Shown piece by piece: positions 14,409-40,694 of a stretch of DNA of 64,000 bases (position 1 is its first letter; each line of letters starts with the position of its first letter). Origin of the DNA: a virus (Duplodnaviria > Caudoviricetes); IMG/VR virus record IMGVR_UViG_3300018914_000001, positions 1 to 64,000 of that record; one strand, written 5' to 3'. The notes beneath the pieces were generated by a model, which did not search any database, was not told the origin of the DNA, and saw only the letters and a list, made by a program, of their open reading frames with translations. A program made the translations under genes and the position numbers.

Positions 14409-14440
14409 TGTGTCCAGCTCCTTATCTTTAAAAGGGTCGC

Positions 14441-15073
14441 CTATCTCAATGTTTTCATCATGTTGATATGCATAAGAGTTTGATTCAGAACATGCTTGGC
14501 AATCTCTTCTATTTGTCTGTTAGCCTGAATTAGACGATAACGACTTACCCACCCTTGCGGATGTGGTTTGGAAAGCTCCAACATTCCTTTCCTAACCCTT
14601 TCAAAATATGCATCATCTCTTGCCTCAAACCTGTCATCCTCATCTCTTTGACGGAATGGCTCCCCATCAAAAACAAATGTGATGTCAGGTAATGTGAATC
14701 CTGTCGAAATATAGTGTAGCGCCTCTAGTGTTCCCCTGTCCCATCCAAGACCATAACCTTGGTAAGCAAGGGTTGAATCAAAATATCTGTCACACACAAC
14801 AACCTTTCCTGCAATCAACGCTGGCTCAATCACCTCATGGAAATGTTGCGCTCTATCAGCATTCATCAAGAAAAGTTCGGCAGAGGGGGATAAGTTCATC
14901 TCTTTCCCCTTTAGAATAGCGCGAAACTGAGGTGTATAAGGTTCTTTGGTGTACAAAGATTCAACATTCGCTTCATTTAGATTCTCAACAAGCTTCAGGG
15001 CTTGTGTTGTTTTTCCAATACCTTCGCATGTGCTTTCAAAGGTGACTAAAAAACCTTCGTATTTCCTCACCAT
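14441..15073 (-). CDS. tmk: Thymidylate kinase
   Basis: GIGKTT, KEP, DRAQH, CDRYFDSTLAYQG, DRFE. Confidence 0.92.
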   Translation of the reverse strand: MVRKYEGFLVTFESTCEGIGKTTQALKLVENLNEANVESLYTKEPYTPQFRAILKGKEMNLSPSAELFLMNADRAQHFHEVIEPALIAGKVVVCDRYFDSTLAYQGYGLGWDRGTLEALHYISTGFTLPDITFVFDGEPFRQRDEDDRFEARDDAYFERVRKGMLELSKPHPQGWVSRYRLIQANRQIEEIAKHVLNQTLMHINMMKTLR

Positions 15074-27092: not shown

Positions 27093-27770
27093 TTACGCAC
27101 TCAGCCCCACAAGGCGGCACAGACCAGCAAGACCATCGTTGAAGCCTTGCCCAATTGCTTCAAACTTCCAGTCGCCGTTGTGCTTGTACAGGCGACCAGC
27201 GACAACAGCCGTTTGAGTGGAGAAATCTTCTCCAAGGTCAAAGTTCACAAGCTTGTTGTTCGTGTTGTCAGCGTCAACAACTCGAATGAACGCATCGTTG
27301 ACTTGTCCAAACGTCAGTTGAACAGGAAGCGGATTGCCGTTTTCGTCTTCGTTGTGGATGGTTACGCAGAACAAGATGGAATCAACGTCAGCGGGCATCT
27401 TGTCGAAGTTGACGTATACAGTTTCGTCAGCTTCACCAATGCCGCCAGCGGAACCAGTACGTTCATCGCCAGTGTGACGTACAGCACCAGATTCATGTTC
27501 AAGATTGCTGTAGAAGATCATGTTTTTCGGAGCCATGCCGCCGTGGGATAATTTTACCCAATCATTTGGGCCTTGCTTGACTTGACCATACGGATTTTGA
27601 GTGGTTTTGAAAGAGCTGTCCAACATGAATGCCGTTACGTCAAGATCATGCTTCACACCATCGAAAACTTGCGCAGACCATCCAAGTTCAACCATAACAG
27701 CCTTCAAGGTTGTACCTTTAGTGAGGTCTACCTTTTGACCTTTAGAGAGGTTTACGGAAAATTGAGACAT
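27093..27770 (-). CDS. terD: TerD-family stress protein
   Basis: LSKGQKVDLTK, GW, DLD, HTGDERTG, FGQV, WKFEAIGQG. Confidence 0.9.
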   Translation of the reverse strand: MSQFSVNLSKGQKVDLTKGTTLKAVMVELGWSAQVFDGVKHDLDVTAFMLDSSFKTTQNPYGQVKQGPNDWVKLSHGGMAPKNMIFYSNLEHESGAVRHTGDERTGSAGGIGEADETVYVNFDKMPADVDSILFCVTIHNEDENGNPLPVQLTFGQVNDAFIRVVDADNTNNKLVNFDLGEDFSTQTAVVAGRLYKHNGDWKFEAIGQGFNDGLAGLCRLVGLSA

Positions 27771-29228: not shown

Positions 29229-29266
29229 CTGTTTCATCCTCCAATAATTTCGTGATTTGTAAAAAC

Positions 29267-29319
29267 GAGGCACATTTGTCCACTATAACCATAGCATATG
29301 TAATTGCTGTACGCGCCTC
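29267..29319 (-). ncRNA. ACAGCA-stem RNA #1
   Basis: GAGGCGC-GT-ACAGCAA...GTGCCTC terminal helix. Confidence 0.6.
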
Positions 29320-29323
29320 TAAA

Positions 29324-29459: not shown

Positions 29460-29534
29460 TGGTACGCCCTACTGGATTCGAACCAGTGGCTCCCTGATTA
29501 AAAGTCAGGTACTCTACCGCTGAGTTAAGAGCGC
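29460..29534 (-). tRNA. tRNA-Lys (TTT)
   Basis: CCTGA-CTTTTAA-TCAGG, ACCA end. Confidence 0.9.
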
Positions 29535-29609: not shown

Positions 29610-29736
29610 TGGTGGGGAGAGAAGGATTCGAACCAACAACCCTCAGTGTTCACCTGTTGGATAAATTGCTGTACGTGACTCTTGTTAACAAGTCACATTC
29701 CATTGACTGATGCTCTGCCAATTGAGCTATCTCCCC
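29610..29736 (-). ncRNA. ACAGCA RNA #2: CCA-ended tRNA body with the module inserted in the anticodon loop
   Basis: GGGGAGA/TCTCCCC-ACCA, D arm, TCAGT/ACTGA stem enclosing GTGACT..AGTCAC-GT-ACAGCAA. Confidence 0.65.
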
Positions 29737-29816: not shown

Positions 29817-29825
29817 TATATACAC

Positions 29826-29942
29826 TAGGCGCGATCAAGTTTTTGCAGAAGTAAGGATTCGAACCTCAGACCTCATGATTATCAGTCATGCGCTCTACCA
29901 ACTGAGCTACTTCAGCGACTTTAAAACTGCTGTTCACGCCTA
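29826..29942 (-). ncRNA. ACAGCA RNA #3 enclosing a complete CCA-less tRNA-Ile (GAT) at 29844-29916
   Basis: TAGGCGT-GA-ACAGCA...[tRNA-Ile cloverleaf]...GCGCCTA. Confidence 0.7.
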
Positions 29943-29954
29943 ATTTTAAAATAA

Positions 29955-30079
29955 TGGTGGGCGGTGCGGGAATCGAACCCACTCCTTTTTCTTTGACATG
30001 GAAAATTTGCTTTTTGGTTGGATTGCTGTGAGAGTCTAACTAGACTCTATAAGCTTAATGCGCCATACACCAACCGCCC
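29955..30079 (-). ncRNA. ACAGCA RNA #4: CCA-ended tRNA body with the module replacing the anticodon arm
   Basis: GGGCGGT/ACCGCCC-ACCA, T arm, internal AGAGTCT..AGACTCT-C-ACAGCAA. Confidence 0.65.
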
Positions 30080-30159: not shown

Positions 30160-30167
30160 ATTATTAC

Positions 30168-30260
30168 AAGGCACTAACTTTTGCTCCCAAGTGAGCATTT
30201 ACCAGTCTGTGGCGGTAAATTTGGATTCGAACCAATAAAATTACTTGCTGTAAGTGCCTT
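30168..30260 (-). ncRNA. ACAGCA RNA #5: YrlA-like circularly permuted tRNA mimic
   Basis: AAGGCACT-T-ACAGCAA, then T arm (TTGG-TTCGAAT-CCAA), looped acceptor-like stem (ATTTACC-GCCACAGACT-GGTAAAT), D-like arm (GCTC-ACTTGG-GAGC), closing AGTGCCTT. Confidence 0.7.
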
Positions 30261-30267
30261 CTCTTGC

Positions 30268-30296: not shown

Positions 30297-30314
30297 CCTT
30301 TTTGTTAGATTTTT

Positions 30315-30437
30315 TGGTAGCCTGTAGAGGAATCGAACCTCTGATACCGCCTCCTGATGGTTAGCGAAAATTGCTGTGAAAGTCTAACTACTAGACTCGT
30401 TTGCTTTTTCGGCGTGTTGCCACTACACTAACAGGCT
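30315..30437 (-). ncRNA. ACAGCA RNA #6: CCA-ended tRNA body with the module in the anticodon arm
   Basis: AGCCTGT/ACAGGCT-ACCA, D and T arms, internal GAGTCTA..TAGACTT-TC-ACAGCAA. Confidence 0.65.
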
Positions 30438-30844: not shown

Positions 30845-32347
30845 TTAGACAGTGACTTGTGCGTAACGATCAGCATTCAAAACTTCCAGCATCAGATCAT
30901 AAGCAGACAGGTTAGTACCAGCCAGCAGATTGCGGAAGATCGAAGGAGATGCACCAGAAACAAGCTGTACGCCGTTGTCCGTCATCGTAACAGGGAATTG
31001 ATCGTTACGAGCGTTGACATTCCAGAATACCAGTTTAGGCATTTCGTACCCTGCCGCATGATATTCACTGCGGATAGTCTGGAATAACGTTTTGCTTTTG
31101 GATGCTCCGCGATCAGCAGAATCGAACTCCATATCAGAGACGATAAAAATAACCCCGATCATTTCATTCTGCGGAATATTATGCTTTTTCGCGGTGTTCA
31201 AAATCATGTCAAATACAGCCTTTACATTGGTGTTCATCTCCCAATGTGCGCGGTACATGTTGGTGACTTTCTCATGCAGGGTTTTCCCCTGAATCTTAAC
31301 CAGTTGCGGACGATTAGAGAAGGTCATAAAGTGGTCTTTGTAGACAGCACTTTTATTGCGTTCAGCCATGTACATAGCCAGAGAGATAGACACATCAAGC
31401 GGTCTGATAGAGCTATGATAGCTTGTTGCGGTCATAGAACCAGAAACATCAGCTACAACCATGCCGTTGACAGCATTGTCGCCCATGTAGTCAGGCAGAG
31501 CCTTCCACATCTCGTCAACAGTCACATCGTTACGCTGGAATGCTTTCAGAACCAACTCGTAAGGGTATAGAGTCGAAGCATTAATCTTCTTCTCGCCCTT
31601 TTGCAGAGAGTCCAAGAACGCTTGGTAACGTTCAGGAGTGTGACGCTTGAAGGCTTCTCTGTATTGCAAACCAGCTTTAGAAGGCAGTTTATCGAACTGA
31701 ATTTCCTCCCAGCGGTTTTGGGACATCAGAGTTTCGAGCAGATTAATCGCACTACGCTTTTTCGCAAGTGCTTTGCGGTACTGCTCTTCGGACAGCCCAA
31801 GATATTTTGCAGTACGCTTTGCGTATGCAATCTTCTGACGCTTTTCAGGAGTCAGATTACGCTTGTGCTTAACCCCATCTTTCCCTTTTTTTAGGGAAGG
31901 GAAGTTGATAGAATGGAGCCACTTTGCCATCAAGGAAGGCTTGTCCCAATTCTCTTTGATAAGAGTCAGAACGTCTTGCTCCAGTCGAGTGTCGAACAGA
32001 GCGTAGATGTCATCCCAACGTCCATACTCTTCGAACAGGTGGAGATTCTTTTTGAGAACGTCAGCGTAAGGCTGATTCATTCCCATATATCGAACGATCA
32101 CGCGGAACAGTCTGCGTTCACCTTGACCACCACGAATGTCGCGGAAGTAGAAGAGTGCCTTCAGTGCCAGTAGTGCATCTTCAGAGAATGCTTTTGTGAA
32201 AGCTCTGATGATGGATTGCTCGTCACGTTGACGCATTGCACCGCCAGTAGCAAAGAAGTCCAGTACATCACTCTTTGTAGTACGATGAGCGAGAGCGCCA
32301 TTCTCAGTGTGCGCGAAGTTAGTTGCATTTTTCAGGTGTTCCAACAT
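30845..32347 (-). CDS. DUF2828-family protein (helical N-terminus plus C-terminal vWA; Ro60/TROVE-like architecture)
   Basis: TENGA, RDIRGGQGER, YGRWDD, AKW, LYPYE, DVSGSM (MIDAS), SDMEFD, VFWN, SGASP motifs. Confidence 0.85.
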   Translation of the reverse strand: MLEHLKNATNFAHTENGALAHRTTKSDVLDFFATGGAMRQRDEQSIIRAFTKAFSEDALLALKALFYFRDIRGGQGERRLFRVIVRYMGMNQPYADVLKKNLHLFEEYGRWDDIYALFDTRLEQDVLTLIKENWDKPSLMAKWLHSINFPSLKKGKDGVKHKRNLTPEKRQKIAYAKRTAKYLGLSEEQYRKALAKKRSAINLLETLMSQNRWEEIQFDKLPSKAGLQYREAFKRHTPERYQAFLDSLQKGEKKINASTLYPYELVLKAFQRNDVTVDEMWKALPDYMGDNAVNGMVVADVSGSMTATSYHSSIRPLDVSISLAMYMAERNKSAVYKDHFMTFSNRPQLVKIQGKTLHEKVTNMYRAHWEMNTNVKAVFDMILNTAKKHNIPQNEMIGVIFIVSDMEFDSADRGASKSKTLFQTIRSEYHAAGYEMPKLVFWNVNARNDQFPVTMTDNGVQLVSGASPSIFRNLLAGTNLSAYDLMLEVLNADRYAQVTV

Positions 32348-32383
32348 TAAAATCATCTCCTTGTTTTCTAATTGGAATCCTGC

Positions 32384-32455
32384 TAGACGCTTTGCACATT
32401 TGTCGTTGTGCGAAAAGAGATTTTTGGAGACAATGTGTACTGCTGTAAGCGTCTA
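32384..32455 (-). ncRNA. ACAGCA-stem RNA #7 (immediately upstream of DUF2828)
   Basis: TAGACGCTT-ACAGCA...AAGCGTCTA. Confidence 0.65.
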
Positions 32456-32479
32456 ATCAAGATTTATAAAACTTTATAC

Positions 32480-32569
32480 TAGGCACAATTCTTGGGGAAT
32501 TGAACCCCTGAATTTCCTTGGAAGGGAAATTTGCATCCACGCAGTAGTTGTGTTTGCTGTATGTGCCTA
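32480..32569 (-). ncRNA. ACAGCA RNA #8 with D-like arm, Gly(TCC) anticodon arm and T arm
   Basis: TAGGCACA-T-ACAGCAA...AATTTCC-CTTCCAA-GGAAATT, GGGG-TTCAATT-CCCC...TGTGCCTA. Confidence 0.65.
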
Positions 32570-32573
32570 TTTT

Positions 32574-33821: not shown

Positions 33822-34445
33822 CTAGTCAGGAATCACAATTTTGGTGATCGTGTTGCTTTCAGACAGAGTAAAATCAACTTCGTTCAAGAACTCAGCGATT
33901 TCCTTCTCCATCTTCTCAATCTTCTCACGAAGATTGTTGACAGAAACGAGCTTCGCTTGGTTCTGCTCCAAGAAGGGCTTGGACGTAGACTCGTATTGCT
34001 CTGTCGAGACTTTGGTGTCCTTGCCGAACGTGGACTTAATCAGTTCGTCAAGACGAATCTGAACTTGCTCATTCTCACGTTCAACTCTTGCAACAGCTTG
34101 GTTATACTCAGTGCGAAGCTTGCTCAGCAAGGTCTGCTCATAGACAATCGAAGACTTGCGCTCGATTGCTTCTGCAACAGACATCTCTTTGCCGCCAATC
34201 GTAACCATCGTTACAGCGTTAGACGCTACGATGGCAGACTTGATAGCCTTACGGCGTTCCATCAAGTCAAGGATAGATTGCAAGTGAGATTCTTGCTTCT
34301 TCACGAACTCATCGTTCGAGGTGTAGCCAGTAACCACTTTCTTGCCAGTGGTCATTACAGCGAACTTTCCGCTGTGAATCGTGCTGTTGATACGCGAGTC
34401 AAGCAATTTCAACTCTGCAAGACCGCGAGTTACAGAAATATCCAT
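33822..34445 (-). CDS. Helical-hairpin coiled-coil protein (resembles DIP1984-like family)
   Basis: S+..+LAELKLL..RI start, IK.AI..SNA.T.V.I, ++SVAEAI, EVD..LS.SN..T.I end. Confidence 0.6.
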   Translation of the reverse strand: MDISVTRGLAELKLLDSRINSTIHSGKFAVMTTGKKVVTGYTSNDEFVKKQESHLQSILDLMERRKAIKSAIVASNAVTMVTIGGKEMSVAEAIERKSSIVYEQTLLSKLRTEYNQAVARVERENEQVQIRLDELIKSTFGKDTKVSTEQYESTSKPFLEQNQAKLVSVNNLREKIEKMEKEIAEFLNEVDFTLSESNTITKIVIPD

Positions 34446-34482
34446 GTGGATGATTCCACCTTTCGTTTGAATTTTGAATATA

Positions 34483-34573
34483 TGGCGGCGGGTGAGGGGA
34501 TCGAACCCCCGCTACAGTTCTCCTGTAGTCACCTGTTTTCAAGACAGGAGCATTACCACTCTGCCAACCCGCC
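34483..34573 (-). tRNA. tRNA-Ser (TGA)
   Basis: CT-TGA-AA loop, long V arm, GCCA end. Confidence 0.9.
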
Positions 34574-34579
34574 ATATTG

Positions 34580-34973
34580 TTGTGAGCCAGCCAGCACGAT
34601 CCGTTACTAGCCAACCCACAACCGAATTGTGTTAGCCCCACCATCTACATCATCACTCGCTCTCGCGAATCTTTGCGTACTGCCACTTGTAGGAGCTACC
34701 TACTTCGCCGTACTGCTATGCCAAAGGGATGATGCCCACGCTAACACTCACGCACTGAGTAGGATTTTATTTGCAGTGTGTGACCTCGCCTGATTAGCCT
34801 TGCGACTCATCCCTACTGACTATCGCAATGTTACACTAACGCATTTTCAGGCTACAACTTGCATGAGATTTCGGACACTCCGACCACTCAATGTTGACGT
34901 GACATAACACAATCATCAAAGTCTCACTGAGAAGACTTGTATCATTAGGCAATTGCCTGTGTGATACTCACAA
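34580..34973 (-). ncRNA. ~394-nt candidate structured ncRNA
   Basis: TTGTGAG/CTCACAA closing helix, many hairpins including GNRA tetraloops, no credible ORF. Confidence 0.5.
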
Positions 34974-34980
34974 AATTTGC

Positions 34981-35035
34981 TAGGCGCATTCATTCCTCTA
35001 TGCACGAAGTTTGGTTTGATTGCTGTTAGCGCCTA
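34981..35035 (-). ncRNA. ACAGCA-stem RNA #9
   Basis: TAGGCGC-TA-ACAGCAA...GCGCCTA. Confidence 0.65.
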
Positions 35036-35043
35036 TGACTGGG

Positions 35044-35343
35044 TTACTTACCCCAAATTCTTGTGATGATTTTATGACCTTTTTCGTCACGTTTGAACCA
35101 GTCAGGTTTGTGCATTAATGGCGGTTTCTGGCGAAAGTTCACCAGAAGATGAACGTCTGCTTTGTCGCCAGTGACTTTGAAGCCCTCAGACTTCAATTTT
35201 GCCACCCAATCAGCGGCATTGTCTTCCGCTTCAGAGCGTGTTGCACCAGCATCTTGCAGAATAACATCTTTTTCAGTCACTTCAATAGTGTCGCCAATCT
35301 TATTACGCTTGGTGACATGTGCAGTTGCGTAAAACTTATTCAT
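35044..35343 (-). CDS. Hypothetical protein
   Basis: ORF with AAGGAG RBS, sandwiched between two ACAGCA RNAs. Confidence 0.6.
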   Translation of the reverse strand: MNKFYATAHVTKRNKIGDTIEVTEKDVILQDAGATRSEAEDNAADWVAKLKSEGFKVTGDKADVHLLVNFRQKPPLMHKPDWFKRDEKGHKIITRIWGK

Positions 35344-35380
35344 ATAATACACTCCTTTAGGGGTGAATTTTCGAGATCAC

Positions 35381-35448
35381 AAGACGCTGTTTGCTTGGGT
35401 GCAAAATTAAAAGTTTTGTCCAATAGTTGTAGTTGCTGTAAGCGTCCT
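35381..35448 (-). ncRNA. ACAGCA-stem RNA #10 carrying a Lys(TTT) anticodon stem-loop
   Basis: AGGACGCT-T-ACAGCAA...CAAAA-CTTTTAA-TTTTG...AGCGTCTT. Confidence 0.65.
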
Positions 35449-35453
35449 TTGCT

Positions 35454-35541
35454 TGGCGGGTAGAACAGGATTCGAACCTGTGGGGCTGTGACACCCACCA
35501 GCTTTCCAAGCTGGCTCTTTAAACCACTCAGACATCTACCC
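35454..35541 (-). tRNA. tRNA-Ser (GGA)
   Basis: TT-GGA-AA loop, long V arm, GCCA end. Confidence 0.88.
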
Positions 35542-35548
35542 ATTTCAA

Positions 35549-35641
35549 TGGCGGATGGAGAGGGATTCGAACCCTCGCGGCAACTCATCGTCACCCTAGC
35601 TGGTTAGCAACCAGCCCTCTTCACCACTTGAGTACCCATCC
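35549..35641 (-). tRNA. tRNA-Ser (GCT)
   Basis: TT-GCT-AA loop, long V arm, GCCA end. Confidence 0.9.
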
Positions 35642-35646
35642 ATCAC

Positions 35647-35702
35647 TAGGCACTATCACATGTTCGATTAAAAGTCGAGTGTGTAATTGCTGTTAGTGCC
35701 TA
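35647..35702 (-). ncRNA. ACAGCA-stem RNA #11 carrying a Lys(TTT) anticodon stem-loop
   Basis: TAGGCACTA-ACAGCAA...TCGA-CTTTTAA-TCGA...TAGTGCCTA. Confidence 0.7.
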
Positions 35703-35709
35703 TATAGTT

Positions 35710-36162
35710 TTAGGTCACATGTGACCATAATTTGTATCTTCGTATTGCTGATATAGTTGAATGATGAACCCCATATTTTAATGCCAAGGAAGTATTCGTA
35801 CTTACCTTATCACTTCTGATTGCTCGAACGTCATCCTCTGTTAGTGTAGATTGAGGATTCTTGTTACCTTTCGTTGAACGATCACGTTCAACCATATCAT
35901 GCATATTTTGAACATGTGTTCCTAGTTCAAGATGTTCAGGATTAATGCACATTGGGTTGTCACATTTATGACGAACTAACATGTTATCAGGTATTTCACC
36001 AAAACATTGTTCGTAAATATGCCTGTGCATATAAGTTTTAATACGTATGCCTTTAATCATCTGTTGATGTAAGATATAGCCATCTTTCTTACGCGAGGCA
36101 TGAGATGTACAGATAAAGCAGTTATTCTCATCAATAACGAACTCTACTGGCTTTCTACTCAT
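35710..36162 (-). mobile_element. Free-standing HNH homing endonuclease
   Basis: HR..Y, VRHKCDNPMCINPEHLELGT..QN..D, C-terminal HTH. Confidence 0.85.
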
Positions 36163-36187
36163 CTCATTCACCTCCTTTGAAAATCTG

Positions 36188-36264
36188 TGGAGGCGCATGG
36201 GGGAATCGAACCCTCCGAATCGTAGATTGAAAGTCTACTGTGTTATCCACTTCACCAATGCGCC
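36188..36264 (-). tRNA. tRNA-Glu (TTC)
   Basis: GTAGA-CTTTCAA-TCTAC, CCA end. Confidence 0.85.
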
Positions 36265-36272
36265 ATACTTCG

Positions 36273-36346
36273 TGGAGACAGGAATGGGATTCGAACCCAC
36301 TAACCTTAGAGTTGCAATCCAAGTCCAGTCCAAACTGGCTCCTGCC
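36273..36346 (-). tRNA. tRNA-Cys (GCA)
   Basis: TT-GCA-AC loop, U73 discriminator, CCA end. Confidence 0.8.
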
Positions 36347-36351
36347 ATGAT

Positions 36352-36411
36352 TGGGGAGAGGATGCGGATTTGCACCGCTCCTAGGATACTAGCTCGAAAG
36401 CCATCCTCTCC
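36352..36411 (-). ncRNA. 60-nt minimal tRNA-like RNA
   Basis: GGAGAGGAT/ATCCTCTCC-CCA, GCGG-TGCAAAT-CCGC T-like arm, tiny internal hairpins. Confidence 0.5.
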
Positions 36412-36418
36412 ATGATAC

Positions 36419-36484
36419 TAGGCGCAATCACTTGGTTCACAGATTGTTAGTCCGTTATATAGCGAGAATTGCTGTTTGCGCCTA
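36419..36484 (-). ncRNA. ACAGCA-stem RNA #12 carrying an AAC anticodon-like stem-loop
   Basis: TAGGCGCAA-ACAGCAA...ACGGA-CTAACAA-TCTGT...TTGCGCCTA. Confidence 0.65.
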
Positions 36485-37149
36485 CAATAATCAGAGGATT
36501 AATCTAAATCATTGCTGATAACGTTTATCTTGTCGTAACCAATTGTAAAGCGTTTAAACCTTAATGTCAACTTCTTTGAGTCTTTCCAATTACCACAAGA
36601 GGTACAATAAGCAACTCTGCCATGTTCTACGTTAGTGAAATTGTCTTCACTTCCGCATTCGCAGACAACTATCAACTTTATCATGGCATTATCGCCCCTT
36701 TCATTACCCGAAGTAGTGACATTTACTATCTTACCACATTGCCGCCAACCTGTCAACATCTTTTTTGTCAGAGTATCGGGCTTGCAATAAGTAAAGGATT
36801 TTGTGAGTCGTTTGAGGAGATGCGCGACTCCTCCTCAAACTCAAAGCTCTCATCTCTGTGCAAAAGCAAAGTGCATTCAATCTCCATCTTATGAAGAGTG
36901 TAGGGGCACTATTCAGAAAGCAAGTGGAGATTGATTTGAAGGATGCCCTTGGCTCATCCTTACATTCACTATGTTATCATACCATTGCGCTAGTGTCAAC
37001 AACAAATTTTGGAGTCTTTTCGCAAAAGTACGGGAATTTTTAAAAAGGTGGCATACCTTTTTGTAGGTATGCCCAATGGAGAGAAGAGGAGATAGATATG
37101 TAGCTCAGTTCCTGCTACTCTTTTATCATACCATCATCTAATAGAGATG

Positions 37150-37566
37150 TCAACTCTCCTCGTTTCCTTTTTTCTCGTTACATCGGGTACACATAGGCTG
37201 GTAGTTTTCAATTACGTCCAGCCCCCCTTTAGAACGTGGAATAATATGGTCTTTGGTCATTAAAACCTCATTTCCATCTTCATCCAACGCATAGAGGTTA
37301 AAGTGATAATTGCGATCATACTCAGAGTGCTTCTCCTTGGCAAAGAAGGCTCCTTTGATACCGCATGTTACGCAATCGCAACCCTTTTCCTTGAAGACAT
37401 ACAAGCGTTGAGATGACATCTTGATCTCGTCACCATCAAAGTTGTAACGAAGCTTCTCGTAGCGAGTTTTACCATCCACAATAGACTTGACATGTCCACG
37501 TGGACGATCAGGGCAAACAATATGAGGCAATACAGCTTCAAGCGGATAGATGCTTTTGCGAATCAT
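37150..37566 (-). CDS. HNH endonuclease
   Basis: CVTCG, TKDHIIPRSKGG...NYQPMCTRCNEKKG. Confidence 0.85.
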   Translation of the reverse strand: MIRKSIYPLEAVLPHIVCPDRPRGHVKSIVDGKTRYEKLRYNFDGDEIKMSSQRLYVFKEKGCDCVTCGIKGAFFAKEKHSEYDRNYHFNLYALDEDGNEVLMTKDHIIPRSKGGLDVIENYQPMCTRCNEKKGNEES

Positions 37567-37667
37567 ATAGCCTCCCCCTTTGCTTCATTGCAAGTTTTAC
37601 ACATTGGTGATTCCTCCTAGAAAAAATATATCCCTATCATATAAAATAATAGGGATAATGTCAATAG

Positions 37668-38708
37668 TTATTTTGCACTAGTATCTGCTTCGTGAAGAAA
37701 CATCAGCTTTTGGAACGTTTGCTCTCCTACAAAGTTTTTGAATTTTTCGACTGCTTTTTCTTTCACGTCTTTATATTGCATCAAACGCATATGATATTGA
37801 ACAAGTTCAACAACACGCAATATGGTGTCGATATCATAGCCCCATCTTTGCAGAACAAGAGCCGCAATTTGAGCAGAAACATTCTCATGCCCAATAAAAT
37901 TTGCATAGCGACCATTAAATTCCTTGGTGTAGCCTTTACCTACATCATGGAACAGAGCCGCAAGCATCATCTCTGTTTTGCCCTCAGACATGCCAAAGAC
38001 CTGTTCATAATGCTCATAGGTATAACTCATGGCATGATAGATGTGTCTGGAGACAGAAAAGGCATGGTATTTGCTGTCCTGCGGAAGATTGATACATGGC
38101 TTAAACTCAGGCGCGAGAGTGAGAAGCCAATTAAAGAATTTGTCGTGTTCAATAGCCCCAAATTGAGAAAGAGTAGCATCAACAGCATGACGCCAATCGA
38201 CACGAATTGGGTCTACAAACTTCATAAATTTAATCAAGTCCCACCCCTCAGAATATGTAGGAACTTGCAATCCTTTATACATTTTTCTGATGACTTCTTC
38301 GCCCACAGAACGATCACGAATGCTATCTCTGAAAATACACTTTCCAACAGACGTGTTGAAGTACACAGCGGTAGCCGCAAGGTGATGCTTTGCCATTTCC
38401 TTCAGCAGAGAAGTGCGCCGCTTAGCAGAGGTGTTGGTAGCATCATAAATTACGTTGATGCCTTTCTGAAGGTTTTCTTTAACACGACTATGCAAAAGTT
38501 CAAAGACTTTAGCATGAGATTCGCCTACAGTCTCGCAATTGGGCAGAAGTTGCGTAGCCTCATCTCCTGACAACTCTTTCCGAATATCATCAGAGGAAAG
38601 CCATACAGTATTTTCTTTATTCTCTTGCATGTACCGCTTTGCCCATGTGGTTTTACCAGAAGCAGGAAGACCTACCAAAACGATCAATTCACCTTTATTC
38701 GACATCAT
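37668..38708 (-). CDS. Polynucleotide kinase (P-loop) fused to an HD domain
   Basis: GLPASGKTT, SSDDIR, DATN..R; C-terminal H...HDVGK...HE..SA...HM...AD. Confidence 0.85.
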   Translation of the reverse strand: MMSNKGELIVLVGLPASGKTTWAKRYMQENKENTVWLSSDDIRKELSGDEATQLLPNCETVGESHAKVFELLHSRVKENLQKGINVIYDATNTSAKRRTSLLKEMAKHHLAATAVYFNTSVGKCIFRDSIRDRSVGEEVIRKMYKGLQVPTYSEGWDLIKFMKFVDPIRVDWRHAVDATLSQFGAIEHDKFFNWLLTLAPEFKPCINLPQDSKYHAFSVSRHIYHAMSYTYEHYEQVFGMSEGKTEMMLAALFHDVGKGYTKEFNGRYANFIGHENVSAQIAALVLQRWGYDIDTILRVVELVQYHMRLMQYKDVKEKAVEKFKNFVGEQTFQKLMFLHEADTSAK

Positions 38709-39515
38709 CAATCGCTCCTCCGTCATAATGGTAATCAAGGTAATAATAGTAATCGTAACATCCTCTGCATCCATCAGCAAATTCTCCACGTGAAAATGTT
38801 GCTGAAGTTCCATCTGTAAATTTCAGTGTTACAGATTCTGCTTCGATACCGCCAGCGTCAGTAATTTCATCAAGAGCTACATCTTCAATCGTCTTACCCT
38901 TCATCTTCTGAAGTCTTTGAACTATGTAGTCTATCTGCCTCTGACGTTTTTGTTTCTCTTGCTCTTTTTTAACACGTTCTGCTTCTTGCTGTGCTAAGGC
39001 TCTCTCCCTAGATTTTTTAGCAAGCTCCCTTTCATTGCAAGCACCGCATTTGCCAAACCTCTGACTTTCGAATGTTGACATTGCGCTACCGCAATTACAA
39101 AATGATATGCCATTCAAACTACTAATCACTCTCCTTTCTTACACCTACTTTCTCCCATACAGATTTTCCAAGCTCATAACCAAGCCTAAAATCCTCAATC
39201 TTCAGAACAAGTTGACAGCTTTGTTCGCTATCGCCGTCAAACCCACAAATAACTCCACGCACAAAATCCTGTCCAAATTCCCCCATCGCAACATGAATAA
39301 TATCAACATTGACTCCCTTTCTACGAATATCAAATTTCTTTTCATAGTAGGCTCCAAGGGCACAAGCACAGCCATTTCTCAGAGTTAAACGTTGGCGTGG
39401 AGTCAGTCCAGTCTCCTCGTATGCTTGAACAATTTCTTCAACAGTTGGAAAAGTCACTTTATGCTTGTTCATTTTTCTCCACCCTTTCGTTGTAGGATTA
39501 GCAAGTTCAGCGAGA

Positions 39516-40694
39516 TCAGTTTTTTCTCGTATCAAAGTACCATTTTGCGGCTGTTTTTCGAATTTCAAGTTCAGTTTCTTTGTTGTCATACATGAGGAAT
39601 GCAAGACCACGAACGTATTTGCCATCTTCATTTTGCGTTTGCTCCATGACAAATTTGGCGTAATCCTTTCTCGACTGGCACTCTTCGCTCAGAGAATAAG
39701 TCCAGATATAGCCAGCCGCACATTCAAACTTTGCAGAAACAGAGCAGAGCAAATCTTGAAGCTCCTCAATTTCTGCGCGAAACTCTTCTGGCACAGCAGT
39801 AATAAGATCATTAAGTTTGCCTTCAACCCACGATTGAACTATTCGCTTTTTGGAGAGTCCATAGGCAATTCTATGGACTTTCATGTATTCGTCACCCTTT
39901 ACTTTCAAGCGAAGCACCGCACCGTCATCAAGCACCCAACGAAGTACGAAACCTTCCTCAGAGTAATGAAGTGTTTTGGCTTTAGCTACAATCTCCTCAA
40001 TTGTGCCTTCAACCTTTTTAGTTACTGGCAGGTTGAAAGATGAACCAAGAGCACTGAGGGTGCTGTAGCCAAAGTCAAAACCTGTAAATCTATTTGTTGC
40101 ACCAATTAATACTAAATCGGTAAAATCATATGGTACAACAACCTTTGTTTCAGGGTGAATAATTTCGCACATAAGAGTGAGAGCGATATATGTCCCACTA
40201 CGAAGGAAAAGGCTGTTAGAACGACTGTATTTATCATCCCAAATCTGTTGTGCAATTTGCGATTGAGGAGAGGTGAAACTGCCGCGAGTAGCCCAACGAA
40301 TCTTTCCATCCAGCCTGTACATGATGCCTAGGGAACCATCTTGTTTAATAGTGATTTCAGGCTTTGGCGCAATTTTTACTCCCGCAATATAACCATTGTT
40401 GGTTATCTTAGTGCGCGGAATCATTGCGTCAAAAGCAGGATTTTCGCCATAGTTGAAAAACTTGGGAAAAGGTCTAGCAAGAACTTCACCAGTTTTTTCG
40501 TTAAGAATCAATCCTCTACATTGAATGTTTATGCCGTTCCATTGGCGTGAATAAACAAGTTCAGGTGTATAGTTTAAAAGAATAACATCAGAGTTTTCAG
40601 GATGCCGAATGAGATTGACGTTACCCTTCTCCACTTCTATCATGTACTGTTCTTTGGTTGGTATAGTGCCATTGAGTTTCATTGATACAATCAC
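39516..40694 (-). CDS. T4 Rnl1-like RNA ligase
   Basis: CRGLI, PFPKFFN, KQDGSLG (motif I), EGFV, KVK. Confidence 0.88.
   Translation of the reverse strand: MIVSMKLNGTIPTKEQYMIEVEKGNVNLIRHPENSDVILLNYTPELVYSRQWNGINIQCRGLILNEKTGEVLARPFPKFFNYGENPAFDAMIPRTKITNNGYIAGVKIAPKPEITIKQDGSLGIMYRLDGKIRWATRGSFTSPQSQIAQQIWDDKYSRSNSLFLRSGTYIALTLMCEIIHPETKVVVPYDFTDLVLIGATNRFTGFDFGYSTLSALGSSFNLPVTKKVEGTIEEIVAKAKTLHYSEEGFVLRWVLDDGAVLRLKVKGDEYMKVHRIAYGLSKKRIVQSWVEGKLNDLITAVPEEFRAEIEELQDLLCSVSAKFECAAGYIWTYSLSEECQSRKDYAKFVMEQTQNEDGKYVRGLAFLMYDNKETELEIRKTAAKWYFDTRKN

Follow-up and report, generated by a model that had tools for sequence, protein, structure and literature searches.

The window analysed here is the first 64 kilobases (kb) of a 158,514-base-pair (bp) virus record with direct terminal repeats (IMG/VR record IMGVR_UViG_3300018914_000001). 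The minus strand of the window carries a tRNA cluster from ~26 to 36.4 kb, with 15 tRNAs called by ARAGORN and 15 Rfam tRNA hits. Twelve intergenic elements of one layout lie on the same strand: a helix-forming strand, then 0-3 nucleotides (nt), then ACAGCA(A). They would give rise to small non-coding RNAs, are called ACAGCA RNAs or handle RNAs here and are numbered #1 to #12, in the same count and order as in a first-pass annotation made from the letters alone. A gene for a DUF2828 protein sits in the middle of this array. The last three elements, #10, #11 and #12, are the subject of this report, as their tips have the shape of a bare tRNA anticodon arm. The features on which the argument rests are the following:

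35380-35449, minus strand: ACAGCA RNA #10, intergenic, recognized by sequence and fold
35647-35702, minus strand: ACAGCA RNA #11, intergenic, recognized by sequence and fold
36419-36484, minus strand: ACAGCA RNA #12, intergenic, recognized by sequence and fold
29460-29534, minus strand: the phage's own tRNA-Lys(ttt), with the arm CCUGA-CUUUUAA-UCAGG and the same loop as #10 and #11
35454-35541, minus strand: tRNA-Ser(gga), adjoining #10
35549-35641, minus strand: tRNA-Ser(gct), adjoining #11
30845-32356, minus strand: gene for a protein with DUF2828 and DUF7788 (PF11443, PF25043), an open reading frame (ORF) of 503 amino acids; PHROG 850 'RNA-binding protein'

Three handle-bearing RNAs and the tRNA-Lys loop

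The ends of each of the three elements pair into a terminal helix. In #10, positions 35441-35449 pair with 35380-35388 over 8 bp with a bulge, and ACAGCAA is left unpaired at 35433-35439. The helix of #11 has 9 bp (35694-35702 with 35647-35655), and its ACAGCAA forms a 7-nt bulge at 35687-35693; that of #12 also has 9 bp (36476-36484 with 36419-36427), with ACAGCAA unpaired at 36469-36475. The motif is thus unpaired, and on the 5' side, in all three. At the other end, each element is closed by an apical arm: CAAAA-CUUUUAA-UUUUG with a 5-bp stem in #10 (35402-35418), UCGA-CUUUUAA-UCGA with a stem of only 4 bp in #11 (35664-35678) and ACGGA-CUAACAA-UCUGU with 5 bp, one of them G-U, in #12 (36439-36455). 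In all three, the loop spans 7 nt, with U as its second base and a purine as its sixth, which is the C32-U33...A37-A38 pattern of an anticodon loop. Comparison with the phage's own tRNA-Lys confirms the first-pass claim that #10 and #11 carry the exact tRNA-Lys(UUU) loop on unrelated stems, and the fold of #12 agrees with its earlier description as a 5-bp/7-nt arm with the loop CU-AAC-AA.

The loop match of #10 and #11 is unlikely to be due to chance. The heptamer CTTTTAA occurs 67 times on both strands of the whole 158,514-bp genome, but in only 4 of the 67 cases does it sit on a stem of 4 bp or more: the tRNA-Lys, #10, #11 and an unrelated site at 118454. None of #10-#12 is called by ARAGORN or by the Rfam tRNA model, and they have no acceptor stem and CCA, D arm or T arm of a functional tRNA.

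The element #10 starts ~5 nt past tRNA-Ser(gga), and #11 ends 5 nt ahead of tRNA-Ser(gct). Because both abut tRNA-Ser genes, they could be released by tRNA end-processing. Element #12 starts 15 nt past the stop codon of the ORF at 36499-36759, and a promoter-like site lies at 36570-36542. A megablast search with positions 34000-38000 against the phage collection gave no match.

The handle family and the DUF2828 genes

Elements of this kind were sought in other phages by a scan for ACAGCAA that follows the 5' strand of a helix of 7 bp or more; the helix had to close within 260 nt and its 5' strand to start ..AG[AGU][CU]. The loci seeded by pattern, and the census counts that come from them, are those among the matches listed. 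The census holds 341 non-redundant elements, 157 in a discovery set and 184 in a replication set; 97 and 92 of these, 189 in all, are short (at most 90 nt). Their handle has the consensus of a terminal helix with a 5' strand of roughly WAGRYRY, 0-3 nt and an unpaired ACAGCAA. In 1.39 Mb of loci, 171 validated elements were found, versus 2 in the same sequences reversed; 221 new loci, seeded with two other handle variants and again among the matches listed, gave 244 elements versus 4 in the reversed controls. Positions of the handle helix co-vary; position 4, for instance, is AU in 101 cases, GC in 29, UA in 11 and CG in 10. In the same genome as the window but outside it, a second tRNA cluster (103.5-105.05 kb, plus strand) ends in two handle elements at ~104857-104942 and 104941-105042. 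Strong helix-plus-ACAGCA hits that do not begin with WAGRYRY (82052, 82488, 83311, 83444, 80234) occur on both strands at ~80-85 kb.

In phages of Bacillus, Listeria, Enterococcus, Staphylococcus, Mycobacterium, E. coli and Campylobacter, DUF2828 genes have the handle next to them on their own strand. Among loci fetched by the protein (numbered with an L), L001-L004 and L008-L011 have elements on the strand of the gene. The scan found no clear stand-alone element in the T4-like Aeromonas-type loci L005-L007 or in L012-L014, where the motif may differ; L015 has a handle inside a tRNA body. Nine cultured phages were opened: Tsamsa, E. coli phage bumzen, mycobacteriophage LeBron, Listeria LP-125, Campylobacter CPX, Enterococcus EFDG1, Staphylococcus S-CoN_Ph3 and the B. 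subtilis phages PJN02 and FADO (in FADO, the DUF2828 protein is fado_144). Each of them has elements on the DUF2828 strand, no further than ~3 kb from the gene. Tandem elements abut the gene in LeBron, LP-125, CPX and S-CoN_Ph3, and elements lie ~0.1-0.2 kb upstream of it in Tsamsa, EFDG1, PJN02 and FADO.

The association also appears when the protein is not used for seeding. Seeding by pattern alone gave a validated element in 52 of 111 loci (among the matches listed), and 18 of the 52 have a same-strand DUF2828 gene within the examined stretch. The remaining 34 loci led to 31 records that were searched whole (2 loci were excluded, and 2 share a record with another locus); a DUF2828 gene is present in 19 of the 31, and in 15 of the 16 records that are at least 90% complete. 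As a control, records with a helix-less pattern match contain the gene in 2 of 49 cases (50 of 59 control loci covered).

A search of 50,697 phage records found DUF2828 homologues in 702, among them Felix O1-like coliphages, phages of Listeria, Enterococcus, Staphylococcus, Campylobacter and Bacillus, and cluster L mycobacteriophages. Their existing annotation says only "RNA-binding" or "Ro-like". An AF2 model of the window's DUF2828 protein, built from a 48-sequence alignment, has a mean predicted local distance difference test (pLDDT) score of 88.8 and a predicted template modelling (pTM) score of 0.89. Its top Foldseek matches are Ro60 (1yvr, 2i91, 1yvp, 9nf8), the Ro60 of phage phiLo (9l5y) and Deinococcus Rsr (2nvo), with E from 1e-8 to 1e-5, template modelling (TM) scores of 0.5-0.59 and 11-15% identity over nearly the whole length. 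The 12 best matches are all Ro60, Rsr or TROVE chains with ~510-575 aligned columns, and von Willebrand factor A (vWA) or metal ion-dependent adhesion site (MIDAS) domains come next in the list. The residues D300, S302 and S304 are invariant in the vWA part of the alignment, a pattern that we take to be the MIDAS motif DxSxS. In Pfam, the protein matches only PF11443 and PF25043 and has no TROVE match, and a phmmer search against PDB sequences gave no match. The model thus predicts a Ro60-like fold with a vWA domain.

The handle RNAs are quite likely the partner RNAs of DUF2828 proteins, to which their linkage with the gene suggests that they bind. Because the DUF2828 model matches Ro60, they look like analogues of Y RNAs with a new handle. 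Rfam 15, searched at gathering score and with E up to 5, gave only tRNA-type and chance-level hits in the window and in phage bumzen. No description of the handle RNAs was found in a literature search, which did not include a comparison with the supplementary tables of Chen et al. (2014), whose phages might include a DUF2828 phage; according to the available part of that paper, its search for YrlA was limited to genomes annotated with a TROVE protein (PMC4201824). The family is apparently undescribed and very widespread.

The terminal helices could instead be RNase sites or terminators that punctuate the tRNA operon and are unrelated to DUF2828, since the elements sit between tRNAs and #1 is followed by a U run. 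This is highly improbable and was rejected: the U tail is found only on #1, a terminator scan of the minus strand reports none of #10-#12, and the motif recurs in phages whose hosts are unrelated and goes together with the DUF2828 gene. Some promoter-like sites are, moreover, placed to start transcription at the helix. A TTGACA-17-TAGAAT site at 30296-30268 (minus strand) ends ~7 nt upstream of #5, and in Tsamsa (L021, ~14430-14470) a TTGACA-17-TATAAT site would place the transcription start at or beside the first base of the handle helix. Since transcription from such sites would begin at or beside the handle helix, they suggest that some handle RNAs are transcription units of their own.

tRNA parts at the tips

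In the discovery set (157 elements), minimum free energy folds of the variable parts contain 233 hairpins, whose loops compare with dinucleotide shuffles as follows:

7-nt loops: 82 observed; mean of 40 dinucleotide shuffles, 12.7
YUNNNRN loops: 50 observed; mean of 40 dinucleotide shuffles, 1.05
CUNNNAA loops: 24 observed; mean of 40 dinucleotide shuffles, 0.025

The enrichment does not depend on folding. When an arm is defined as a CUNNNAA loop on a stem of 4 bp or more, 19 of 97 short discovery elements contain one (mean of 200 shuffles 0.56, maximum 3), and so do 21 of 92 short replication elements (mean 0.60, maximum 3). Together, arms are present in 40 of 189 short elements (~21%), from 34 loci, and the stem is 5 bp in 25 of the 40. 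No called tRNA overlaps any of the 97 short discovery elements. The density of arms is 5.16 per kb versus 0.12 per kb in 360 element-free spacers of tRNA clusters, a 43-fold difference, and the 7 arms in the spacers include no CUUUUAA. The check proposed in the first-pass annotation, a tabulation of loops over homologous elements, thus has a positive outcome: 7-nt CU-NNN-AA loops on ~5-bp stems are strongly enriched, the enrichment replicates and it is specific to the family. The anticodon-arm shape is very likely under selection.

The displayed triplets are strongly biased. UUU accounts for 16 of the 40 arms and sits on 15 different stems, followed by GUU (6), UUA (3) and GCA (3), with others occurring once or twice. 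Of 484 phage tRNAs, 3.5% are ttt; against this share the excess of UUU has a binomial p of 1e-13, and against base composition one of 1e-11. A U directly follows the loop in 14 of the 16 Lys-type copies. Some triplets, UUA (three times) and UCA (once), would read stop codons. The phages FADO (L361, 1690-4500) and PJN02 (L360, 5485-8000) have five handle elements each, the first of which (L361:1690-1757 and L360:5485-5552) heads the tRNA cluster and carries ACAAU-CUUUUAA-AUUGU; the examined stretches contain 15 tRNAs in FADO and 13 in PJN02, with no tRNA-Lys among them.

Other members of the family display other parts of a tRNA. The T-loop motif GTTCRANYC is found in 59 of 184 replication elements. 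Mid-sized members follow two designs: in one, the handle frames a tRNA-like unit whose arms are in normal order, and in the other, the order is permuted to T arm, closed acceptor, D arm; 11 of 38 framed units are called as tRNAs, including Lys twice and Asn twice. The type of tip is not readable in many short members. Both designs are represented among the other elements of the window, which are listed here with two genes of RNA repair type that lie beyond #12:

34979-35036, minus strand: #9, simple, handle present, apical loop GUGCAUA, which is not of the CU-NNN-AA type
32479-32570, minus strand: #8, handle, 7-bp arm with the loop CUUCCAA (Gly UCC type) and a T-arm-like hairpin
32382-32457, minus strand: #7, simple member
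30314-30437, minus strand: #6, tRNA-like body with acceptor stem, encoded CCA, D and T arms and a permuted handle
30167-30261, minus strand: #5, handle with T arm, closed hairpin and D-arm-like hairpin, in permuted, YrlA-type order
29955-30079, minus strand: #4, tRNA-like body with encoded CCA and the handle in the anticodon position
29821-29945, minus strand: #3, handle helix framing a complete tRNA-Ile(gat) at 29844-29916
29613-29736, minus strand: #2, tRNA body with encoded CCA, with a hairpin and ACAGCAA between the anticodon-stem strands
29265-29321, minus strand: #1, simple member, followed by a U run
37668-38813, minus strand: polynucleotide kinase (AAA_33) with HD phosphohydrolase, Pnkp type, by Pfam; PHROG 505 'polynucleotide kinase'
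39516-40694, minus strand: T4 Rnl1-type RNA ligase, PF09511; PHROG 562 'RNA ligase and tail fiber protein attachment catalyst'

The Rfam tRNA score is 49.3 bits for #2 and 28.2 bits for #4, the latter slightly below the 29-bit cut-off. In #6, the anticodon position is taken by a closed hairpin and then ACAGCAA. In #2, #4 and #6, the strand that precedes ACAGCAA pairs upstream rather than downstream, which is a circular permutation of the helix-plus-ACAGCAA unit, and the permuted handle also occupies the anticodon position of tRNAs at L002:2401, L015:13967 and L028:3851 and 3722. That a circularly permuted form sits inside tRNA bodies argues that helix plus ACAGCAA may act as a self-contained recognition handle. 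These anticodon-less tRNAs bearing the handle (#2, #4, #6 and those of L002, L015 and L028) are the mirror image of the bare anticodon arms. Mimicry of tRNA parts by the tips is well supported by the sequence comparisons.

Several further features lie in the same region. The stretch at 36347-36417 (minus strand), between #12 and tRNA-Cys, is an unannotated folded piece of 71 nt with a terminal stem of 9-10 bp and CCA after it; it also contains a small hairpin with a UUCG cap and another, GCGG-UGCAAAU-CCGC, that resembles a T arm. It has neither an anticodon arm nor an ACAGCA handle and is called by neither ARAGORN nor Rfam. Two HNH endonuclease ORFs lie among the tRNAs and small RNAs (35710-36198 and 37150-37566, minus strand), the first of which overlaps the 3' end of tRNA-Glu by ~10 nt. 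A gene for a TerD-domain protein (27093-27770, minus strand) follows directly past the tRNA cluster.

The tips could be explained in two ways that involve no tRNA-directed enzyme. Antisense RNAs have U-turn loops, and the 7-nt U-turn loops might find target RNAs by base pairing, with their likeness to anticodons being convergent. A CU-NNN-AA loop with a variable NNN is compatible with a recognition loop, and several triplets match no normal tRNA. No complementary partner was identified, though, and the UUU bias on a tRNA-standard 5-bp stem, the T and D arms in tRNA order and the framed whole tRNAs point to tRNA mimicry, which makes convergence quite improbable. Alternatively, the handle might insert into tRNA genes or recombine with them, so that arms and T arms would be functionless, decaying leftovers. 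The handles inside tRNA bodies and around whole tRNAs fit this account, as do the homing endonuclease genes interspersed in the cluster. Conversely, the arms are intact and not decayed (5-bp stems in 25 of 40, exact 7-nt loops, UUU on 15 different stems), their density is 43 times that in other spacers of tRNA clusters, and their triplets do not follow the frequencies of tRNA genes. We consider relics of this kind very improbable.

Proposed function and comparison with known systems

In the Ro60-Y RNA particle, a ring protein binds the conserved end stem of the RNA and a variable module engages other proteins. By analogy, DUF2828 would be the Ro60-like protein, and the handle RNAs, with a constant handle and a variable tip, would play the part of the Y RNAs, the handle being the putative protein-binding site. 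The RNAs would be made as part of the tRNA cluster's transcript and released when tRNA ends are processed. Once bound to the protein, an RNA such as #10 or #11 would present its copy of the anticodon arm as bait to host enzymes that attack this arm, such as PrrC/RloC-type and PARIS AriB-type nucleases. The bait would spare the real tRNA-Lys and complement the kinase and ligase of the phage, which form a repair pair.

PrrC recognizes the anticodon arm of tRNA-Lys. Bait for anticodon nucleases is favoured because the displayed arm is the part of tRNA-Lys that such enzymes recognize, because 14 of the 16 Lys-type copies keep the U after the loop and because the phage has the classical repair pair. 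The part of the report available (PMC12409363) names tRNA-Lys(UUU), Thr(UGU) and Asn(GUU) as targets of PARIS AriB, with U36-A-A-U39 as the element that it reads; UUU and GUU are the two commonest displayed triplets, which also favours a bait. This bias is consistent with a decoy and would fit equally well a tether that recruits anticodon-arm-binding enzymes. The decoy step is plausible, and we hold it tentatively. The first-pass interpretation finds partial support. Its association of the RNAs with DUF2828 holds as a genome association, the protein having a predicted Ro60-like fold, and nothing was found that specifically supports its other suggestion, that the RNAs are guides for modification or repair enzymes.

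Several observations weigh against a bait. Thr(UGU), a prime target of AriB, is displayed by none of the 40 arms, and AriB also needs D-loop contacts, at least as described in the available text (PMC12409363), which a bare arm does not offer. Known Y RNAs are tethers and gates and not decoys. The triplets AAC, AUA, AAA, UUA and UCA match no ordinary tRNA target; that of #12, AAC, has no counterpart among the 484 ARAGORN phage tRNA anticodons, so #12 has the shape of an anticodon arm and copies no listed tRNA. As 149 of the 189 short members are without an anticodon arm, an explanation for the wider family is needed, and with only ~1/5 of the short members showing an arm, decoy action cannot be the function of the whole family. 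The sequencing runs that contain the stretch are four DNA metagenome runs from one study, with no RNA run listed. The scan behind the census used our own script and thresholds, and its sample was seeded with only three variants of the 5' strand.

A different role for the same anatomy is that of a tether, in which the handle binds the Ro60-like protein and the arm recruits a friendly enzyme that recognizes anticodon arms, giving a particle for RNA repair or quality control. The recruited enzyme could be the phage Rnl1 or Pnkp repair enzyme or a host modification enzyme or synthetase. In the window, ligase and kinase genes lie near the DUF2828 gene, and in Listeria LP-125 the annotation places RtcB-like, RNA ligase and phosphoesterase genes 1.3-8 kb downstream of that gene. 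The T arms or whole tRNAs on other members would suit a general handling of tRNA-binding proteins. There is also precedent in the sections available of two reports: a Y RNA links Ro60 to polynucleotide phosphorylase (PNPase) (PMC4201824), and phiLo Ro60 with its Yrl RNAs binds host PNPase (PMC12135203). A repair tether has no obvious need for one anticodon, yet UUU is shown by 16 of 40 arms. The tether is a serious rival of the bait, though we regard it as rather unlikely.

Bait action could also be wider than the lysine arm. A Ro60-like protein with 3 to 14 interchangeable RNAs per genome might form a modular set of decoys against several tRNA-directed immune enzymes, in which each RNA would show a different piece of a tRNA, be it the anticodon arm of Lys or Asn, the elbow, the anticodon-less body or the whole tRNA. 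This is possible but doubtful; if true, it would be a principle of counter-defence not described so far.

With these RNAs, DUF2828 proteins gain a candidate family of RNA partners that is absent from Rfam 15 and from the literature searched. What emerges beyond #10-#12 is a Y-RNA-like family for DUF2828 proteins, apparently undescribed, in which the tips systematically reproduce parts of tRNA and strongly favour the lysine anticodon arm, which bacterial immune nucleases attack. If the RNAs are baits, they would be a new way in which phages protect translation, and if they are tethers, they would be part of a new phage RNA-repair particle. In either case, they offer an explanation for many unannotated gaps in phage tRNA clusters.

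In phage T4, Pnkp and Rnl1 repair tRNA-Lys that has been cut by PrrC. The present phage resembles T4 in that a gene of kinase/phosphatase type and an Rnl1-type gene lie a few kb from #12 (1-4 kb beyond it) and in that the copied loop is that of tRNA-Lys(UUU). Whereas T4 repair mends the tRNA after the cut, a decoy would act before it. Phages also use RNA decoys, such as RNA anti-CRISPRs and pseudo-ToxI, which copy CRISPR repeats or antitoxin RNA. If the handle RNAs are decoys, they would be like these in that a phage RNA copies an RNA element recognized by a host defence protein; a literature search on phage decoys found no protein-bound copy of a tRNA anticodon arm.

Phage T5 encodes tRNA-Lys, tRNA-Thr and tRNA-Asn variants that act against PARIS AriB (PMC12409363). 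As far as the available text allows a comparison, the two cases are alike in that Lys UUU and Asn GUU stand out. They differ in that T5 supplies complete, nuclease-resistant working tRNAs (PMC12409363), whereas the bodiless arms described here cannot decode. The Thermus phage phiLo, with its Ro60 and the RNAs Yrl1 and Yrl2 (PMC12135203), is a parallel for a phage protein of Ro60 fold together with phage RNAs and a proposed action on host RNA enzymes. Unlike DUF2828, the phiLo protein belongs to the canonical TROVE type of Ro60; the phiLo RNAs are reported to form a bridge to PNPase, and the part of the report available does not mention the display of an anticodon arm (PMC12135203).

The closest comparison is with Ro60 and its Y RNAs, and in particular with YrlA (RF02553), as far as it is covered by the available sections of its description (PMC4201824). 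In both, small RNAs lie beside a gene for a Ro60-fold protein and on its strand, often in tandem; a stem formed by the two ends of the RNA bears a conserved motif, where the protein would bind; and the variable module mimics tRNA. A subset of the handle RNAs (#5 and elements in bumzen, Tsamsa, LeBron and FADO) even shares with YrlA the permuted T arm, closed acceptor and D arm. Unlike YrlA, #10-#12 are without this T arm-closed acceptor-D arm domain. The partner is also different, since DUF2828/DUF7788 has 11-15% identity with Ro60 and no TROVE match, and the handle is ACAGCAA after a WAGRYRY helix rather than GNCGAAN0-1G / GGUCCGA (PMC4201824). Bare anticodon arms, framed whole tRNAs and handles in the anticodon position of tRNAs do not appear in the available part of the YrlA description (PMC4201824). 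With the YrlA covariance model, no hit at gathering score was obtained in the window, one chance-level hit (18.6 bits, E 4.4) was obtained elsewhere in the cluster, and phage bumzen gave no hit. Because the protein family and the handle motif differ and the Rfam YrlA model is unmatched, the handle RNAs are best regarded as RNAs of the Ro60-Y RNA kind that are separate from YrlA.

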